From: Candidatus Tayloriibacteriota bacterium
GTDB taxonomy: Bacteria; Patescibacteriota; Minisyncoccia; Phycocordibacterales; UBA10002
NCBI GenBank assembly: GCA_009694955.1
Contig: SIBZ01000001.1
Coordinates: forward strand, 63 to 64,062
Length of the DNA stretch: 64,000 nucleotides
Reading direction: 5' to 3'
A model generated the notes under the pieces. It saw only the letters and a program-made list of their open reading frames with translations, was not told the origin of the DNA and made no database searches. The position numbers were made by a program, and so were the translations under genes. Below are positions 3,701-52,026 of this stretch, piece by piece. The first letter of the stretch is position 1, and every line of letters begins with the position of its first letter.

Positions 3701-3856
3701 GCCTTTCTGGGCGGGAGGAGAGTCAAGTCCTGTCGCTCCCGGGTCAATACCCGGTATTCCTTGCGCGAGTACAAACGTCGTTGGCACAAAGAGTACCCCC
3801 GCAACAACGCTCGAGAGAAGGAGGCTCACTATACCGGTTGTGAAGAAGCGGTGCAT
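800..3856 (-). CDS. TrbL/VirB6-like polytopic membrane protein (T4SS inner-membrane component family) with a long C-terminal coiled-coil tail built from tandem repeats
   Basis: The 1018-aa ORF has an N-terminal signal/TM segment, then a block of 6 or more hydrophobic helices (…MLNIILMGLFGSVLMLVAAFVFFAASIMFVLRGITLIMLMLLSPLAFVSWLLPGASGLASAWWNKLW…) typical of TrbL/VirB6. The C-terminal ~450 aa are charged and helical, with 21-aa (QAQQVQITAAEQK.ELAK) and 17-aa (AKVPAGNVTVAEQELER) units each repeated 3 times. A 3-nt gap separates it from the upstream gene. Confidence 0.6.
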   Translation of the reverse strand: MHRFFTTGIVSLLLSSVVAGVLFVPTTFVLAQGIPGIDPGATGLDSPPAQKGYAPDGKGGSPTAPQNGKSKLPSEPPQTKGCVAYSGLGIVPSINLDGCVALIANLGMWLAARTLWVSGALLNITLERTLNMSSLLHDLPIVDIGWKVIRDVSNIVFIFIALWCGISITLGLKAEQAWGFLAQMVLVAIFINFSLFITKAVVDASNIAALHFYNLIAPAEHRQGGDAGLSEAFMQGLRLQTIYNPNSLNGGGKQANTTSLIGGGINMLNIILMGLFGSVLMLVAAFVFFAASIMFVLRGITLIMLMLLSPLAFVSWLLPGASGLASAWWNKLWSQAFFAPLYLLLSYIVVYTINSDAFQQSMSIAANSGTQGFAAALTGTTSAPLIIVFNFIILIGLMVGCLIVAQSLGARGSDLMMEWGHKLKGEGTGLVGRHAMQGFGLGHLGEKWQEKNAAKMADDKHVGLFSKIGAGALKYTSMRNLNERLSQTPRGNTAVGKFFREQTTGRMADAKFGGSKSAEEAYEESEHDASVRRAIGHINVARRAGEKLHPLRTDQRQHQIALADARKNVTEAENASKLAQTANPNPVEVAAAEKALTDAKADVREIEAAQKELDQANVPAGNVTAAEQELERAKVPAGNVTVAEQELERAKVPAGNVTVAEQELERAERKTPEIEAAEKRLAEEKADLATDPNNKIFQGFVENAQKKLDAEKAKQAPAIATAQQGLDRAKQAQQVQITAAEQKRDLAKQAQQVQITAAEQKLELAKQAQQVQITAAEQELERATKEHQSRVTLAGQSLATAQEPTQAQKDALRRWTEYKDAKEKFAKNPTDQAAKAAIASLEPQLSSEYHGLAKAEKAMEEAEKELKEFNVKNQGAIDQLVNKMSTAFAKLTPQEYIELTPKDDHFKPELVDYGVLPASFVRALAEDEHALTEGEKQEMIHARVKRLVEDSKRGETRKQEYNARYIEYQTAVNREDSIRNALPSQMSLSGMRKEQEYLREILAELKRGKKKGGSDLLY
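1512..1700 (-). repeat. Three near-perfect 63-bp tandem repeats inside the TrbL-like CDS, encoding the 21-aa coiled-coil unit
   Basis: Direct reading shows ...tgctccgccgctgtaatttgtacctgttgcgcctgcttcgccagctcgagttttt... three times with only a few substitutions. Confidence 0.85.
1857..2009 (-). repeat. Three near-perfect 51-bp tandem repeats inside the TrbL-like CDS, encoding the 17-aa unit
   Basis: cgttcaagctcttgttccgccactgtgacgtttcctgccggtactttggcc occurs three times. The third copy carries minor changes. Confidence 0.85.
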
Positions 3857-3859
3857 GGA

Positions 3860-6793
3860 TTAGTTGATGACAAAATCAAGCGGAAACGCAAGTGTCTTGT
3901 CCGCCCCCGAGTCATCTTTATACAAAGCCTCAATGAGTATTCGGACGGTACGTCCCTTTTCGAATCCGCCCGTAGCGAGAAGCGCATCCTTAAAGCCTAT
4001 GGCAACGGGCTTGTCAGGAGTTGCAGTCAGTCCCTCGGCGAAGATAATCGGTTTTGAGGTTTCTTGTATGTCTCCTAAACAAGAACCTTTCAATTTCCGG
4101 TTCGGTGGAGCGTCGGCGCAGACAATCGGATTTATTTTTCTGTCGCCTCCTGTGCCGAGAAGGAACGGTGGTGTCTCGCCGGACGTGATGGAATTCCCAA
4201 ACGCGAACACGAAGCTTTTGGTCCCGTTCGCGAACGTATCGAAATATTGCCTCCACTGCGCCGGAATAGTCGGAGGGCTTCCCACAAGCAGTTTCGCCTG
4301 GAGTGTTATGTTTTTTAGCTCTTTATTTGTCCGGAGTTGAATGGCGAGTTCCGGCGGAAGCGCGAGTGTTTCTCCCGCGATGAAGTCACGGCAAATACCC
4401 GAAGGACAGTTTCTCACGGAAAGAGATGTCGGATTAAATCCAACTTGCAGGGGAATGTTCTGGGGGACGGTCGAACCGGCACTGCCGACGGGTGTTTGCT
4501 TGCCGAACACCTCCACTTCGACGATGATGAGAGGGAAAAAGTATCTATCTGTGGCCAATGCAGATTGTTCTATTCGTACGTAACGCCCTTTAGTTCCAGT
4601 GGGGAGGGGAATAGTGTACCTAGGACTTCTGTACGTGTACAACGGAGCAGAGTTAGAAGAAGTTTGAGCTCGAACAGGAACCGAGTACACCACTTGTCTG
4701 GCGTCGTTCAAGACGGAGACCACAAAGCTTCCATTTCTAAGCGTGTTGTTGAACTCGCCATTTTTATCTGAGTCCCACGGTCCGGCGGGGCGGTAGATGA
4801 CCACCTCTTTTATTTCATCGGTGGTCCACCCCCTTGTCTTGTTTGCCCCGCTAGCTTCCAAGTCAACCTCCCACCATTCCGATGATTCCGATGAACCGGC
4901 GTTTGTGCAGGAAAAAGACAGATAGTTTCCGTCCCCTCCCGAAGTATTACCGTCTACCGCAACTTCGGCGAAAGGTTTTTGCGCCCAGTAGTTCCAGAAT
5001 TTGGTACAGTCGCTTGATTGCGAGGCAAGTTTCCCAACTGACATATTTCCTTCAATCGCTTGTGTTGGCGGAGGCGTAGTCCCGGTATTGCTTGGAGCAT
5101 TCGGTGCTCCGGCGCGAGTGAGTGCGTCATCGTTGTTCTGTTCCGCGTACTGGTTGACGCGGTTCCGGCAACCAACCTGCACCTGCTGGAAATACGTGGA
5201 CCATTCCGTGTCATCGGACTTGGTGATGAACTCCTGTCCCTCAGCCCTAACGAGAGTTTCATCTGGCCCGGGTGGGGCGCTGTGCTCAATTTCAGTCCCA
5301 TTCGTCTTTCGGTATGTCGGCACACTCGTGTTGTACACATAAGGGTCCCCCGTTGTTACTTTTCGATATGATTGCTGGCCCCCCGCCGTACTCTGACGCA
5401 CCGCAGCCGTTGGAAATCGAATAGTTTCTACTCCTTCGTAGGTTGCCCCACTATTTTCAAAGAGGTCGAACGGTACGGGTTTTGGGCTAACTGTAAGTCG
5501 TTGCCCGCGATTTTCAACCGTGTACGTCCTTCCCGCTTGTGCACCGTCGAGCAGTTTTACCGACAGGGTTTGAACTGGATTTGTTGCGGTCGAATCAGTA
5601 ATAATCCTTATGACTTCTGCGTTCGCCCGTCTATAGGAAACCAGCATCACACGATTGCTCCCCCCTCCTTCTGCTTGGTACTCAAAATCGCAGTTAATAC
5701 CCGCGGGTGGACGTATCGTTGCCAGCCGTTCCGCCGCTTCGGGGCTTGCGACCAGCTGGTCGAGGTATGACGGTCCTCCCCCCTGCTCCGGCTCGCTATT
5801 TCCAAGCAGTCCTCCGGGGCCGAGCGTTCGAACAAGGAGTTGGTTCACTAATGCTCCGAAAATCTCGTCAAGTTCGTCGGCGACCTCGAGTTCGCGGAGT
5901 GTGCTCGAGAGCGTGCTGTTTCCTTGCCCTACAATCATAGCGCCGGGAGTCTTTATCTTCCCCGGTGTCTTACACGCGCCTGTTCTCGTCACTTTGCCGT
6001 TGCGGTCTTTTTCGTCCGGGTAGTACTCTTCGCAACTTCTCCACGATTTAAATCCTTGGCCAAAATCGAGCAGTTTGATTTCTTTTCCGCTCGCGGTCAC
6101 AATGCTCGCATCGAGCTTGCTCACTGTCCCGAGGTACGCGCCGTACACATTGTTTTGCGGGTTGCCGGTGATTGATATCCAGTTGCGCCAACCGCCCGAA
6201 CGGAAGTTTCCCGTGACGAACGAGTCGTACGAACCGCGCACATTGGCAATCACATCGGAAAGCCGGCAACGGACATCTTCGCGGGTATTCAGCGAATATT
6301 GGAGACCGAGCGCGAATTGCAGGTTAAGGCGGAACGGAGCACAGAGCATTGGGGCGATTTTCTCTATTTCACGCCCGAATTCTTTATCGGCGACATCCAT
6401 AAGGAACCCTTCGGGGTTCGTTATGAAGGAAGGCTTGCCTTCAAATCCACTGTTTATCCAGTTAACGACGCTTTTGGTGAAACTCTGCAGTATGGTGCGA
6501 GCTATTTGTTTGGCCGTAATGTCCAGAATGCATTCTTTCAGCAAGCTTCCTTTTGTATTCGAATCAGTTTTTCTGTTATATGAAGCGACCGTAGAGTCGT
6601 ACGTAGGCACTTTAAATACATTTATCGCTGCTTCCCCAAGCGCCTGTGCCCCGCCAATAAGAGAGTTAAAGAGGTATCCTCCGAGGCATCCGAGTATGGC
6701 GTCCGTGCGTTTCGGGTAGAGCAAAAGAGCCGTTGGTGCAATAAGCAATACGGCAAAAAAAGGCGGCAACCATTTTTTCCACACCCTCTTCAC
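3860..6793 (-). CDS. Large secreted protein (977 aa) with a discoidin (F5/8 type C)/galactose-binding-like domain; first gene of an operon with the TrbL-like gene
   Basis: The N-terminus has a signal peptide (MKRVWKKWLPPFFAVLLIAPTALLLYP). A central segment (...YLSFSCTNAGSSESSEWWEVDLEASGANKTRGWTTDEIKEVVIYRPAGPWDSDKNGEFNNTLRNGSFVVSVLNDARQVVYSV) matches the W..VDL signature and length of discoidin domains. The ORF is long and uninterrupted. Confidence 0.65.
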   Translation of the reverse strand: MKRVWKKWLPPFFAVLLIAPTALLLYPKRTDAILGCLGGYLFNSLIGGAQALGEAAINVFKVPTYDSTVASYNRKTDSNTKGSLLKECILDITAKQIARTILQSFTKSVVNWINSGFEGKPSFITNPEGFLMDVADKEFGREIEKIAPMLCAPFRLNLQFALGLQYSLNTREDVRCRLSDVIANVRGSYDSFVTGNFRSGGWRNWISITGNPQNNVYGAYLGTVSKLDASIVTASGKEIKLLDFGQGFKSWRSCEEYYPDEKDRNGKVTRTGACKTPGKIKTPGAMIVGQGNSTLSSTLRELEVADELDEIFGALVNQLLVRTLGPGGLLGNSEPEQGGGPSYLDQLVASPEAAERLATIRPPAGINCDFEYQAEGGGSNRVMLVSYRRANAEVIRIITDSTATNPVQTLSVKLLDGAQAGRTYTVENRGQRLTVSPKPVPFDLFENSGATYEGVETIRFPTAAVRQSTAGGQQSYRKVTTGDPYVYNTSVPTYRKTNGTEIEHSAPPGPDETLVRAEGQEFITKSDDTEWSTYFQQVQVGCRNRVNQYAEQNNDDALTRAGAPNAPSNTGTTPPPTQAIEGNMSVGKLASQSSDCTKFWNYWAQKPFAEVAVDGNTSGGDGNYLSFSCTNAGSSESSEWWEVDLEASGANKTRGWTTDEIKEVVIYRPAGPWDSDKNGEFNNTLRNGSFVVSVLNDARQVVYSVPVRAQTSSNSAPLYTYRSPRYTIPLPTGTKGRYVRIEQSALATDRYFFPLIIVEVEVFGKQTPVGSAGSTVPQNIPLQVGFNPTSLSVRNCPSGICRDFIAGETLALPPELAIQLRTNKELKNITLQAKLLVGSPPTIPAQWRQYFDTFANGTKSFVFAFGNSITSGETPPFLLGTGGDRKINPIVCADAPPNRKLKGSCLGDIQETSKPIIFAEGLTATPDKPVAIGFKDALLATGGFEKGRTVRILIEALYKDDSGADKTLAFPLDFVIN

Positions 6794-48939: not shown

Positions 48940-49027
48940 AGGATTGGATTATACTAAAGTCATCCGCGAATGACGAACGGAAAGGAAAATTGCGAGCATG
49001 CATTTTTTCTGTTAGGCTTTGCAACGA

Positions 49028-49098
49028 AGCGGGATTAGTTTAATGGTAGAACTGCAGTTTTCCAAACTGTAGGCGGGAGTTCGATTCTCCCATCCCGC
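49028..49098 (+). tRNA. tRNA-Gly (anticodon TCC)
   Basis: gcgggat...gcagt-ttTCCaa-actgt...gggag-ttcgatt-ctccc-atcccgc-a. Confidence 0.9.
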
Positions 49099-49261
49099 AT
49101 ACACAAGTAACCGGCCCAAGGCCGGTTTTTTTGTGCGGGATAGAAGATGTGGGACATCTTCGTGGGAGAATCGAAGCCTCTTTGAGCATACTTTCGAGCC
49201 TCTGCGAAGAAAGCATCCAAAGAGGGGACTGAGTCTGTAAGACTCGATTCTCCCATCCCGC
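49099..49261 (+). repeat. tRNA-associated tail element, copy 3. It has a terminator hairpin (aaccggcccaaggccggttttttt), H1 gaagatgt-ggg-acatcttc, the block GGGAGAATCGAAGCC..TTGAGC and H2 gagtc-tgtaa-gactc, and it ends with a 22-nt direct repeat of the tRNA-Gly(TCC) 3' end (tcgattctcccatcccgca).
   Basis: Read directly from the sequence. Confidence 0.8.
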
Positions 49262-49295
49262 ATAATAGTAAGTTCAGCCTCACAATTTAGGTAAG

Positions 49296-49327
49296 TACAA
49301 TATATTTGCGGTCGCAAATATATTGTA
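49296..49327. promoter_or_regulatory. 32-bp dyad-symmetric element tacaaTATATTTGCGgtCGCAAATATAttgta overlapping the -10 (tatact) of the PaaX-like gene; candidate operator
   Basis: A second copy at 49945..49976 differs only at a symmetric position pair (tacac...gtgta), which preserves the dyad. Confidence 0.6.
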
Positions 49328-49337
49328 TACTGAAGGG

Positions 49338-49922
49338 ATGCAGATACAGACGGGGAAAAGAAAAAGTACGAAAGAGAGAAAAGCGCGTATCGCTACTGTA
49401 CAAAAAGCGGTACTCTTTTCTCTGGCGGCCGCAGGAGGATTAACCCTTGCGTTACTTGCTCCAAATGCTCTTCAAGTACTTGAGCAATTTGGCTGGGTAA
49501 AGACAAAACGCAACTTTCGGCAGACAATCAATATTTCAGTTGAACGCTTGTCTCGTGCAGGATTGATTATTAAAGATAACGACGGTCACATCAACCTTAC
49601 CAAAAGAGGGGAACAACGTCTTTCTGAATTGGAAAGGATGCACTACCGAATTGATCAACCGAAGAGGTGGGATAATAAATGGCGTTTAGTCAGTTTTGAT
49701 ATAAAAGAAACCCGAAAAGAGGTACGGGAATTATTACGCTCGACACTTCAAAGTGTCGGATTCGTGCGTCTTCACCGGAGTGTCTGGGTATACCCGCACG
49801 ATTGCGAGGATTTTCTCTCACTTCTTAAGGTCGATTATCATATCGGCGTCGAAGTTCTCTATATTATCGCAGATTATATCGAGAATGACGGCTGGCTTCG
49901 GAAGCATTTTGACCTGTCGTGA
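49338..49922 (+). CDS. PaaX-family-like transcriptional regulator
   Basis: The C-terminal region WDNKWRLVSFDIKETRKEVRELLRSTLQSVGFVRLHRSVWVYPHD is typical of PaaX-like proteins. The start ATG is at 49338 (the ORF track used a TTG at 49323). Confidence 0.55.
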   Translation: MQIQTGKRKSTKERKARIATVQKAVLFSLAAAGGLTLALLAPNALQVLEQFGWVKTKRNFRQTINISVERLSRAGLIIKDNDGHINLTKRGEQRLSELERMHYRIDQPKRWDNKWRLVSFDIKETRKEVRELLRSTLQSVGFVRLHRSVWVYPHDCEDFLSLLKVDYHIGVEVLYIIADYIENDGWLRKHFDLS

Positions 49923-49944
49923 TACGGCAAGGTATCAATGAATA

Positions 49945-49976
49945 TACACTATATTTGCGGTCGCAAATATAGTGTA
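49945..49976. promoter_or_regulatory. Second copy of the 32-bp dyad element, in the convergent intergenic region downstream of the PaaX-like gene
   Basis: tacacTATATTTGCGgtCGCAAATATAgtgta. Confidence 0.6.
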
Positions 49977-50042
49977 CGTCGAGGAAAGTGAGGAAAGATT
50001 TTAGATGGCGCAGATAGAAACGAGAAGGAGTATATTTAGGAT

Positions 50043-50861
50043 TTAGGAACGTAGTGTCTTATCCAATCGTTTCGCTTCCGCCCACGCGAGCTCGTAGATT
50101 TTTTTCATCGCGTCGGCGATTTCCGCGCTCTCTATAATGACGCCGAGCTTCTCGCGCCATGAGGCAATCATCACTTTGTTGTCATAGATATTTATTTCCG
50201 GAGAAAAGTAATATTTATCTTCGGGAACAAACGCAATCTCGCGCTTTTCTTCTTCGTTGTACGAAGAACGTGCCCGCGCGATGAGTGTGCTCGGGACGAT
50301 AGCGCGAATGGCAATACCCGCTCCGGCACGGCGCTTATAGTATTCCGGAAAATAATTCGGGAGGCCTTTGTGCATGTCGTCTACGTTCGCGTACGCACGT
50401 ATCGCCTCTGCTGAAGTGAGCGTATCTTCATATACCTGTTTCAACCCCTCGGTACCCTCATAGAATTTTATTTTTGGGCGGTTTTGCGTGGCGTGTACGG
50501 AACGAAGCTCCGGCAGAAGCGCTTCGGCCCTTGTGATACGTTCCCTTGCGGCCTCGGCTTCCTTTCGAAGGTATGCAATGACCGACTCGGGCGGTTCGGC
50601 CGAGTACTCCTGCTTCGGCTCTTTGCCCGACACATTGACCACACCCTTGTTTGAAAGGGAATCAAGAATGTCATAACCGGTCGTGCGGTTGATACCGGCC
50701 TTCCGGCTGATTTGTGTGACGGTTCCTCTGCCAAGCTCAAGGAGAGCCACATACACTACTGCCTCCTTTTCGCCAAATCCGAGCGAGTGAAGGGTGGCGG
50801 GAAGTTCTTTCATTCCGTCATTCATACCGGCGAGTGTATCATCTAGCCAAAAATGTGTCAA
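50043..50861 (-). CDS. TrmB-family transcriptional regulator (paralog 3)
   Basis: LGFGEKEAVVYVALLELGRGTVTQISRKAGINRTTGYDILDSLSNKGVV is a TrmB wHTH. The start is probably MKELPATL at 50813. Confidence 0.65.
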   Translation of the reverse strand: MTHFWLDDTLAGMNDGMKELPATLHSLGFGEKEAVVYVALLELGRGTVTQISRKAGINRTTGYDILDSLSNKGVVNVSGKEPKQEYSAEPPESVIAYLRKEAEAARERITRAEALLPELRSVHATQNRPKIKFYEGTEGLKQVYEDTLTSAEAIRAYANVDDMHKGLPNYFPEYYKRRAGAGIAIRAIVPSTLIARARSSYNEEEKREIAFVPEDKYYFSPEINIYDNKVMIASWREKLGVIIESAEIADAMKKIYELAWAEAKRLDKTLRS

Positions 50862-50944
50862 TTTATTTCCACATAAATATGCCTAAGATACTAAATACTA
50901 TTGCAAAATACGGCTTTGTTAAGCATTTATAGTGACGATATCTT

Positions 50945-50974
50945 TTGACAGTATGTATAGCATTACGATATAAT
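50945..50974 (+). promoter_or_regulatory. Near-consensus sigma70-type promoter (TTGACA, 18-bp spacer, TATAAT) driving the two-gene hypothetical cassette
   Basis: ttgacagtatgtatagcattacgatataat. Confidence 0.6.
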
Positions 50975-51004
50975 ATACTCCGGAAGTCAAACGCCTTGAA
51001 AACT

Positions 51005-51382
51005 ATGAGAAAATTCAGAATTCGACACATGACTGTGTACCCATCGGACCGATGGTTCCTTGATGCAGAGGACGGCGCTAATTTCTTCAGCGAGCGTGGC
51101 TTTGAGGCGGTTCTGCAGAGTGAAGAAGTCCTCGTGACACCTGAGAAACGAATGGTCGTCTTCTTGTGTGTGTGTGACGACGGTTCATTTAAGCTCGTTC
51201 GAAAAGAAGGACGCTATGCGGAAACAATCATTGACCAAGGAATTTCATCGGTGTGCGAAAGTCTTACCGATGAAAACGCTGTCTTCCGCGGAGAAGGAAA
51301 CTATATGGAACACTACCGCTTCTTCTGTTGTGGGGAAGCCAAACAAGGATACTATGAAATTCAAAGTATGGAGAACCGTTAA
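51005..51382 (+). CDS. Hypothetical protein (about 125 aa)
   Basis: MRKFRIRHMTVYPSDRWFLDAEDGANFF...; cysteine-containing with no recognised domain. Confidence 0.4.
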   Translation: MRKFRIRHMTVYPSDRWFLDAEDGANFFSERGFEAVLQSEEVLVTPEKRMVVFLCVCDDGSFKLVRKEGRYAETIIDQGISSVCESLTDENAVFRGEGNYMEHYRFFCCGEAKQGYYEIQSMENR

Positions 51383-51827
51383 GGTTGGGACATATCCAAC
51401 CTGCGCTGACTTGGAAAAAGCTGTAAACGGTAAATGTGGAGGGCGAACGTGGTTTTCAAGTCTGCCTTTCATAATTCAGCCTGCCGGGACACTGGAACTC
51501 ACGTTGGTAAAAGGGTTTCAGCTTGGACAGCGTAGAAACGCAAGCCGTAAAGAGATTTGCGAACTCGCAAAGCGGGCGAGACTTCAGGAATGCCCGAATG
51601 AAGTGGCGGTTCAGTTGGTGTTACAGGATTTTATTGACCCGTACACGTTCGAGACCAACATCGGTTCGACGGAAAAATTGGGAGACCGCTCCGACTGCTA
51701 TATGAGCGTTAACTCCCGACTCGGAATGGTGTGGCTCAACTGCTATGTTGACCAGCCCGAGGGATTCGAACCCTCCATCGTCTGGGTGTTTGTGGTCCCG
51801 CAAACTGAAAAAAGTCTGGCAGTGTAG
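51354..51827 (+). CDS. Hypothetical protein (about 157 aa); overlaps the upstream gene by 29 nt
   Basis: MKFKVWRTVKVGTYPTCADLEKAVNGKCGG...; followed by a terminator at 51841..51880 (cgcagttcgcttcggcggactgcggggtttttta). Confidence 0.4.
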   Translation: MKFKVWRTVKVGTYPTCADLEKAVNGKCGGRTWFSSLPFIIQPAGTLELTLVKGFQLGQRRNASRKEICELAKRARLQECPNEVAVQLVLQDFIDPYTFETNIGSTEKLGDRSDCYMSVNSRLGMVWLNCYVDQPEGFEPSIVWVFVVPQTEKSLAV

Positions 51828-52026
51828 AAATTCAATATACTTCGCAGTTCGCTTCGGCGGACTGCGGGGTTTTTTATTTCTAATATAAAATAAGAAACAC
51901 CACCCCCTCTTCAATTCTCCCCCTCAACTGAGGGGGAGAGGAAGAGGAGAACACAAAACCCGCCGAGTGGCGGGTTTTGTGGAATTCTGGATTCCCGTTT
52001 CCACGGGAATGACAGAAAAGAAAAGA

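Follow-up and report, generated by a model that had tools for sequence, protein, structure and literature searches.

A structured tail matched to its tRNA-Gly(TCC) gene belongs to a Patescibacteria-wide family of tRNA-linked elements

Transfer RNA (tRNA) and transfer-messenger RNA (tmRNA) genes are classic targets of tyrosine integrases, and integration leaves behind a regenerated gene and a displaced fragment of the old one (PMC4383910). An arrangement that recalls this one lies at positions 49029-49264 of a 64,000-nucleotide stretch of DNA from Candidatus Tayloriibacteriota bacterium (hereafter the window), where the gene for tRNA-Gly(TCC) is followed on the same strand by a structured element of ~130 bases, here called the tail. 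Like tRNA-gene (tDNA) islands of the Islander type, the locus combines an intact tRNA gene with a direct 3' repeat that begins in the T-loop; tmRNA genes are used as well, and a variable segment adjoins. The tail differs from such islands in its size (~140 nt), its conserved covarying structure, its inverted copy of tRNA sequence, its deep positional conservation and the lack of an integrase.

Other described systems share single features with the tail. In plant mitochondrial t-elements, MALAT1 mascRNA and the tRNA-like domain of tmRNA, the RNA ends pair into a helix resembling the acceptor/T-arm that brackets other RNA. RNase P, RNase Z and the CCA-adding enzyme would be expected to act on such tRNA-like processing elements. 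In the tail, by contrast, the helix is matched to the neighboring tRNA copy by copy, the T-loop is base-paired and a three-way junction takes its place, and neither ARAGORN nor Rfam calls it a tRNA or a tmRNA. In integron attC and the attP(+) of CTX phage, inverted arms about 80-100 nt apart imitate a recombination target, arm structure is conserved above sequence and one-strand integration leaves an inverted site pair beside the target. The architecture of the tail is compatible with a folded single-stranded DNA recombination site of this type, but no recombinase linkage was found, no integrase is associated with it, its complex apex is conserved where theirs is variable, and its arms are target specific. 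With the retroviral primer-binding site the tail shares a complement of about 20 nt of a tRNA 3' end, and with H/ACA guide RNAs a complement split by a hairpin into two arms on one continuous target strand; unlike them, it shows no unpaired target base, ACA box, known bacterial partner or associated reverse transcriptase, and its complement tracks the gene trailer rather than the mature CCA end. Finally, repetitive extragenic palindromes and their mosaic elements (REP/BIME) and miniature inverted-repeat transposable elements (MITEs) are likewise short, structured, multicopy, homogenized per genome, arranged in tandem arrays and polymorphic for presence or absence, whereas tails lie strictly 3' of tRNA or tmRNA genes in one orientation and have terminal inverted repeats that are host derived, not constant. 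The features of the locus are as follows.

49029..49099, forward strand: host gene, tRNA-Gly(TCC) (ARAGORN; Rfam RF00005, 72 bits).
49081-49099: X_up, the last 19 nt of tRNA-Gly(TCC), comprising the T-loop from T55, the T-stem 3' strand, the acceptor 3' strand and the discriminator.
49100..49132, forward strand: spacer between tRNA-Gly(TCC) and the tail, with a terminator-like hairpin inside.
49109-49116 with 49120-49127: stem of the terminator-like hairpin AACCGGCC-CAA-GGCCGGTT, loop CAA, followed by a run of seven T to 49134 (terminator consensus scan).
49133..49141, forward strand: acceptor-5' mimic GTGCGGGAT (inverted repeats I1 and I3).
49143..49161, forward strand: hairpin H1, GAAGATG-TGGGA-CATCTTC (fold).
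49163..49175, forward strand: anti-T segment TGGGAGAATCGAA (inverted repeats I4/I5, 12-13 nt at 100%).
49173-49245, forward strand: core, a ~70-nt three-way junction of stem P, internal loop AGC, P2 and H2 (fold).
49173..49230, forward strand: first part of the core, comprising junction GAAG, stem P, internal loop AGC, P2 and junction GGACT.
49177-49184 with 49218-49225, forward strand: stem P, CCTCTTTG with CAAAGAGG (fold and covariation).
49188-49195 with 49209-49216, forward strand: hairpin P2, loop GAGCCTCTGCGAA (fold and covariation).
49231..49245, forward strand: hairpin H2, GAGTC-TGTAA-GACTC, a 5-bp stem with a pentaloop (fold).
49244..49264, forward strand: X_down, direct copy of the tRNA 3' end with 2 flanking bases (repeat search).

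The 3' end of tRNA-Gly(TCC), X_up, is both copied and complemented within the tail. An exact direct repeat of 21 nt, TCGATTCTCCCATCCCGCATA, occupies 49081-49101 and 49244-49264; the original prediction, made from the sequence alone, had correctly recognized this duplicate, which it gave as 22 nt and printed as 19 letters. The 142 nt between the two repeats hold no credible open reading frame (ORF). H2, which ends ...CTGTAAGAC, shares its final two bases with the start of the downstream copy. The complement of the tRNA end comes in two pieces: GCGGGAT of the acceptor mimic GTGCGGGAT, a module absent from the original prediction, together with the preceding T complements the acceptor 3' strand and discriminator (ATCCCGCA), and the anti-T segment is a 13-nt perfect complement of the T-loop and T-stem 3' strand, in the upstream tRNA and the downstream copy alike. 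H1 stands exactly where the acceptor and T-stem complements meet, the equivalent of the 7/49 break of a tRNA. The arms and a tRNA 3' half rebuild the coaxial acceptor/T-arm helix with H1 at the 7/49 break, and the three-way-junction core (P, P2 and H2) is clamped between an inverted copy of the T-loop and T-stem and a direct copy of the tRNA 3' end. Folded alone, the tail is predicted to reach -58.9 kcal/mol (z = -5.4) with a 7-bp acceptor-like stem, H1, a long T-arm-derived stem and the three-way junction; a predicted 5-bp T-stem-like helix lies beside the 7-bp acceptor-like helix, H1 is at their junction, and the T-loop is paired, with the core in its place. In the minimum-energy fold of the whole tRNA-plus-tail transcript, it is the upstream 3' half that pairs with the 5' arm.

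The spacer hairpin at 49109-49127 has 8 pairs, 6 of them G-C, and is followed by TTTTTTT, which matches the consensus of an intrinsic (rho-independent) terminator as a G+C-rich hairpin with a T run on the transcribed strand. A terminator ahead of H1 had been predicted at 49108-49131, and the consensus hairpin with its seven T residues lies at 49109-49127/49134. CACAA (49102-49106) is able to pair with TTGTG (49131-49135), extending the spacer hairpin outward to the acceptor strand (inverted repeat I1). All the other modules described beforehand are likewise present, with coordinates within 0-1 nt.

Two sister copies lie elsewhere in the window.

28508..28630, forward strand: sister copy 1, following tRNA-Arg(TCG); it shares all modules except the terminator (alignment; covariance model, 80.0 bits).
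28811..28965, forward strand: sister copy 2, the tail after tRNA-Gly(GCC), without a terminator (alignment; covariance model).

A covariance model built from 121 relatives scored the three tails of the window at 91.6, 92.7 and 80.0 bits, and the next match in the 64 kb reached 12.6 bits. The motif ACTGANNCTGTAAGNNTCGA occurs 3 times in the window against 0.03 expected, and the 19-nt tRNA-end pattern twice against 0.00. The tail at tRNA-Gly(TCC) is thus the third copy that the original prediction took it for, sharing its modules with the copies at 28.5-29.0 kb (80-93 bits), and the similarity extends beyond tRNA-derived bases, as both the alignment and the covariance model span the whole core. 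tRNA-Pro(TGG), at 30231-30303, is the sole tail-less tRNA among the four of the window (ARAGORN, covariance model).

The pattern GAAGCCNNNTTGAGC…ACTGANNCTGTAAG was scanned over a species-representative genome collection, where it occurs at at least 117 loci; individual loci carry labels such as L015. All taxon-naming titles among the matches listed belong to Patescibacteria, the candidate phyla radiation (CPR), and the lineages among them include Paceibacterota/Parcubacteria, Nomura-, Taylor-, Lloyd- and Vogelbacteria and metagenome-assembled genomes labeled Saccharibacteria. The same pattern found 0 matches in viral contigs. A core profile gave 151 matches in the listed loci and the window, and 123 of the 214 tRNAs of those loci, representing 18 amino-acid identities, have a same-strand tail no more than 300 nt away. 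Tails are invariably on the tRNA strand, directly downstream of the gene, and measure ~100-170 nt. Apparent orphan tails are mostly at locus edges, and truly solo tails are few (L038, L070). The element is therefore one member of a Patescibacteria-wide family of structured elements located 3' of tRNA genes, intron-containing tRNA genes and tmRNA genes.

Several loci are informative about the genes that precede tails. In L069 a tmRNA gene (3781-4174; Rfam, 97 bits) precedes a terminator-type spacer and, at about 4190-4350, a tail with arms that fit the 3' end of the tmRNA. The tRNAs upstream of the tails in L029 (2006-2247) and L116 (1245-1509, reverse strand) are split by group I introns (Rfam RF00028, 58 and 55 bits), and an intron-interrupted tRNA was also seen by eye upstream of the tail in L034 (about 4100-4230). 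In L021, L095, L106, L085 and L058, non-tRNA sequence with CGGTCTTAC or GGTTCCACC occupies the 100-250 nt upstream of the tails; the 3' part of RNase P RNA was suspected by eye at these orphan tails, and Rfam did not bear this out, giving no match even at E<=0.01. L106 also holds a LOOT RNA at 479-607 (Rfam RF03000, 73.8 bits).

Searches for a family already on record returned none. Rfam 15, whose families include self-cleaving ribozymes, Y RNA-like RNAs, ROOL/GOLLD and riboswitches, detected only tRNAs in the window at gathering threshold, and at E<=10 over 48950-49350 the best non-tRNA match was 24 bits, on the opposite strand over the terminator. Rfam searches of the orphan-tail loci gave no family for the tail, and full-text literature searches turned up no description of it, their one useful yield being background on tDNA islands. 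Specific candidates were also set aside: a tmRNA, as neither ARAGORN nor Rfam RF00023 calls one in the window; a MITE or transposon, as the arms change with the host tRNA, the direct repeat ranges from about 10 to >45 nt and no transposase is associated; an H/ACA-type guide RNA, as the arms pair with a continuous 19-20-nt target with no unpaired base and the alignment shows no ACA-box relationship; and the hammerhead, the kink turn (K-turn)/box C/D and the T-box, which were compared by eye on consensus and misfit in junction order and sequences. On the defining features tested no known family fits, and the tails appear to be a new kind of tRNA-associated structured element.

The core is supported by covariation across the family. 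In 121 sequences, 93.2% of the cells of stems P, P2 and H2 are paired compared to 78.1% in shuffles, and the covariation score of 0.390 compares with 0.124 in shuffles (0/500 reach 0.390) and at most 0.118 in slid controls. Four scan motifs are invariant by construction, and divergent copies found by the profile show their natural variants. The free stem positions of H2 covary (AU 79/CG 27/UA 12 and CG 62/AU 41/GC 10/UA 6), as do its basal pairs in divergent copies. Of 123 instances, 117 have a hairpin of at least 6 pairs where H1 stands; its stem ends covary (GAAAG/CTTTC, GGAAG/CTTCC, GTAAG/CTTAC and others), and its loops are rich in G. G.U/U.G cells number 197 against 33 for A.C/C.A, so the folding strand is the tRNA-sense strand, consistent with RNA.

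Variants of the core were also observed. A subtype in which a further small hairpin separates H2-TCGA from the T-stem copy occurs in L020, L021, L022, L033, L061, L066, L069, L109 and L113 (for example GCG-TACT-CGC, GTG-TACT-CAC and ATG-TAAT-CAT), and its stems covary. L037 has a 41-nt hairpin inserted just after H2, at the same point as the extra hairpin of the subtype, and in L085 arm and H1 are followed by a different core. C-GNA-G triloop mini-hairpins (GCGAAGC, ACGAAGT, GCGCAGC) recur at the apexes of spacers and of P2, as in the window at 28820-28830 (GAACGAAGTGA) and in L042, L067 and L072.

In contrast to the shared core, the inverted arms vary with the host tRNA. Over its 12 nt, the anti-T segment complements the upstream tRNA at 12/12 positions in 44 of 92 members and at 11/12 in 27, compared to a mean of 8.5 for non-cognate tRNAs. 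Of its two possible partners, the upstream tRNA gives the better fit in 47 members and the downstream copy in 2, and the two fit equally well in 43. The tRNA 5' acceptor 7-mer is found at the mimic position at 7/7 in 28/92 and at 6/7 in 23/92 (control mean 4.66). The arm complement usually extends through discriminator, trailer and the arms of the spacer hairpin, and acceptor 3' strand, trailer and 5' arm together form hairpins of 25-31 pairs at -40 to -50 kcal/mol. The match of the 5' arm is thus maintained with both the upstream tRNA and the trailer of that tRNA. At wobbles or mismatches of the tRNA T-stem, the base found in the tail is the Watson-Crick complement of the 3' strand 21 times and the tRNA 5' base 3 times, which shows that it is not a decayed tRNA duplicate; a pseudo-tRNA duplicate was rejected on the same count and on the lack of any tRNA call in 49100-49264 even at Rfam E<=10.

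The downstream copy always begins in the T-loop and is variable in length, giving direct repeats of about 10 to >45 nt that at times reach into the trailer or terminator (L047, L040, L037); it is intact in 60/95 members and truncated or decayed in 35/95. Among the same 95 members, 34 have a terminator-like hairpin in the spacer, another 34 have a C-GNA-G mini-hairpin there, and 27 have neither. Terminators after tails are weakly enriched (24 versus 13 of 116). In L002 (segment about 420-470) the copy that follows the tail comes from the 3' end of another tRNA, which is Arg-like, while the arms match the upstream tRNA-Pro, and the apparent start of another tail comes next; this arrangement suggests a deletion between two T-loop sequences.

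Comparison of orthologous loci revealed that tails persist over the long term under structural constraint. Searching for the same locus in related genomes through the PaaX_M-domain gene downstream gave no informative pair, whereas synteny through the protease, HU and RNase Y genes did connect the genomes. The order protease (reverse strand), tRNA-Gly(TCC), tail, …, HU (reverse), RNase Y (reverse) is common to the window, L015, L009, L019, L082 and L094, with identities of 78% for RNase Y and 86% for HU in L015 and of 36-40% for the protease in L009, L019, L082 and L094. Across this Gly(TCC)-tail clade the acceptor mimic retains a bulged A and covaries with tRNA pair 6:67. The tail at tRNA-Gly(GCC) in the window is about 93% identical to its orthologue in L037, with compensatory double changes in H1, P and H2, while the intergenic DNA flanking this pair is unalignable.

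At the same time, cores are copied or homogenized among the tails of one genome. They are more alike across different tRNAs of one genome than for the same tRNA across genomes (mean 0.83 compared to 0.78), several one-genome pairs on different tRNAs reach an identity of 0.93-0.99, and the identity of such near-identical pairs is limited to the core, which runs from GAAGCC up to where the T-loop copy begins. L015, L063, L096 and L088 have cores in tandem. The orthologous tail of L015 has the same GTGCGGGAT-A-GAAGA… H1 and the same anti-T but two tandem cores, the second of which resembles the single core of the window, and tRNA-Arg(TCG) is tailed in the window and untailed in L037. Related genomes thus do show the indel polymorphism anticipated for this locus type, two cores against one in L015 and an absent Arg(TCG) tail in L037. 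The tail resembles a functional RNA in the way it evolves and, in addition, a genomic repeat in the way it behaves.

From this evidence, a tRNA-linked structured RNA module made by transcription that continues from the tRNA is, at roughly even confidence, our preferred explanation. The element would be made as RNA by run-on from the tRNA promoter, which at tRNA-Gly(TCC) the intervening terminator would throttle. Two pairing options would then be available to the 5' arm. With the 3' copy of the tail itself it may form a self-contained mimic of the tRNA top half, which could be excised by tRNA end-processing enzymes; with the 3' half of its own read-through pre-tRNA it may form the alternative helix. 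The core could be a protein-binding or catalytic module presented by the arm clamp. The tail may in addition be a semi-selfish repeat, spreading by recombination at T-loop-like borders and retained because misfolded copies would interfere with the host tRNA.

The original prediction had drawn a different conclusion from the terminator: it argued against the distal modules being simply a trailer read through from the tRNA, and favored a DNA-level origin (a scar of integration or recombination, or a miniature element) or an independently transcribed RNA. A comparable hairpin is present in only 34/95 members and in neither of the other copies of the window, and no promoter-like site was found between the terminator hairpin and the tail. 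With these two results the terminator is best seen as an optional module that offers no proof of independence from the tRNA transcript.

Several points nevertheless weigh against a run-on RNA. A consensus terminator precedes the tail in 34/95 members, this copy included, so RNA could be made there only by read-through. The downstream copy needed for the self-contained mimic is truncated in about a third of core-intact members. The search pattern itself accounts for part of the invariance of GAAGCC, TTGAGC, ACTGA and CTGTAAG. C-GNA-G triloops are best known as unusually stable single-stranded DNA hairpins, and the model gives no account of how a new tail gains arms that match a new tRNA.

Such triloops at hairpin tips would fit a first alternative, which we consider unlikely: the tail may be a miniature mobile DNA element whose folded single strand recombines at the T-loop with the help of a recombinase supplied in trans. 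Its single-stranded arms would fold into a duplex imitation of the 3' half of a tRNA gene, as in integron attC or the CTX-phage attP hairpin, and one strand exchange would yield, in order, a tRNA with an element-borne 3' half, the spacer, the inverted arm, the core and the displaced chromosomal 3' half. This predicted order is the observed order, and it accounts for the best match being that between the upstream 3' half and the inverted arm, as well as for the decay of the downstream copy. Tandem and solo copies, presence/absence differences and near-identical cores within genomes are also as expected of a mobile element, as are direct repeats that reach the trailer or terminator (L047, L040, L037) and the choice of tRNA and tmRNA genes, the classic targets of tyrosine integrases (PMC4383910). 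On the other side, no recombinase accompanies the tails: clustering of all ORFs of the 117 listed loci found no recurrent protein family beside them and no integrase or transposase. Tailed tRNAs show no excess of stem mismatches (2.1% compared to 2.6% in untailed tRNAs) and no sign of foreign 3' halves, leaving chimeric tRNAs with an element-supplied 3' half unsupported. The near-identical copies share the core alone, without arms, H1 or spacer, and mobility offers no route to reprogram both arms for 18 kinds of tRNA. The compensatory changes and conserved bulge of orthologous tails over deep divergence are likewise difficult to reconcile with it. The long arm hairpins have a G.U fraction of 4.2%, similar to the core stems (~3% of cells without the pattern-fixed U.G pair), and strictly DNA-templated perfect palindromes are accordingly unsupported.

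A second alternative remains with RNA and proposes a cis-acting fail-safe, in which read-through RNA zips the 5' arm together with the tRNA 3' half and trailer into a 25-45-bp duplex. The duplex would trigger cleavage (for example by RNase III) or block maturation, insulating downstream genes from the strong tRNA promoter. The arm does fit the precursor, including trailer and terminator arms, rather than the mature CCA end, in hairpins of -40 to -50 kcal/mol; the minimum-energy fold of tRNA plus tail pairs the upstream 3' half with the arm, and tails always lie on the same strand directly downstream of a tRNA. We nonetheless regard a fail-safe as improbable, as it leaves the three-way-junction core, H1 at the 7/49 break, the downstream copy and solo tails unexplained, and only some tRNAs carry tails.

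One conserved scaffold with many tRNA-specific arms is what a guide RNA would have. The bipartite arm would be the guide, and on the core as scaffold would sit a protein, encoded elsewhere, that acts on the tRNA or its gene by modification, processing or recombination. Two arms around an upper stem that pair with one continuous target strand reproduce the topology of an H/ACA pocket, and the arm is Watson-Crick matched to the target strand. Yet there is no unpaired target nucleotide at the junction, no ACA-like box or K-turn was recognized, and the ORFs clustered from the listed loci include no candidate protein; a folded tRNA would need opening, and in complete copies the downstream copy sequesters the guide. 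We judge a guide RNA to be improbable. In its most ambitious form, to which we give similarly low credence, the tails would constitute an RNA-guided system acting on the tRNAs of the cell itself: core and H1 would serve as scaffold, the bipartite guide matched to the 3' half of the neighboring tRNA or tmRNA would direct a protein encoded elsewhere to that tRNA or gene (for example for T-loop-directed processing, modification or recombination), and guides would be retemplated from each host gene.

The plain scar of a deleted genomic island or prophage in a tRNA gene, or a degenerate tandem tRNA duplicate, is hardly credible: the signature of tDNA integration is indeed an intact tRNA with its 3' end repeated in direct orientation downstream (PMC4383910), but the ~140 nt that separate the repeats have a conserved, covarying structure found at >100 loci and with 18 kinds of tRNA, no integrase is present, the arm complements the 3' strand and is no copy of the tRNA 5' strand, and ARAGORN and Rfam see no tRNA in the tail. 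An integration scar, which the original prediction had favored as one origin, is further disfavored by four results: no integrase or other protein family travels with the tails, the Gly(TCC) tail is positionally conserved where the flanking protease is only 36-50% identical, orthologous tails keep their stems by compensatory changes beside unalignable flanks, and no third att-like copy was found bounding the adjoining variable segment. For the locus itself, an integrase attachment (att) scar or island was rejected, as the 21-nt direct repeat is present but the 142 nt between the repeats hold no integrase or cargo.

Downstream of the tail, a 2.8-kb segment (49265-52026) reaches to the HU gene and encodes a PaaX_M-domain protein, a TrmB-family regulator and two unknown ORFs. 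Its G+C content is 0.44-0.48 compared to 0.51-0.54 on either side, and the same interval in L015, the closest relative, has other genes. The TrmB orthologue, 76% identical, sits in L018 at a different tRNA that has a tail. Metagenomic homologues of the PaaX-like gene (at most 73% identical) were never found beside tRNA-Gly or a tail and gave no pair of empty and filled sites, and no third att-like copy of the tRNA end was found bounding the segment. The suggestion of a segment boundary at the tail holds to the extent that the interval is variable, with different gene content in L015 and a G+C dip. The tail is at the edge of a variable segment, yet itself old. A perfect 15+15-nt palindrome, TACAATATATTTGCG-GT-CGCAAATATATTGTA, at 49296-49327 overlaps a promoter-like site just upstream of the PaaX_M-domain gene (49323-49922) and looks like an operator.

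Whatever their origin, tails place stable inverted repeats of 25-45 bp at tRNA genes that adjoin variable gene segments, and tools that seek displaced tRNA fragments will mistake them for partial tRNA pseudogenes or 'mini-islands'. Arms that are copied from and complementary to the host tRNA raise the testable question of how one sequence is retemplated for many tRNAs. Should the tail prove to be a DNA element, no smaller integrative element would be known, and it would target the T-loop without a recombinase of its own. If it is a functional RNA, the tails would represent a large RNA class, so far uncatalogued and linked to the most conserved genes that a cell has, in a radiation that makes up a large share of the diversity of bacteria.

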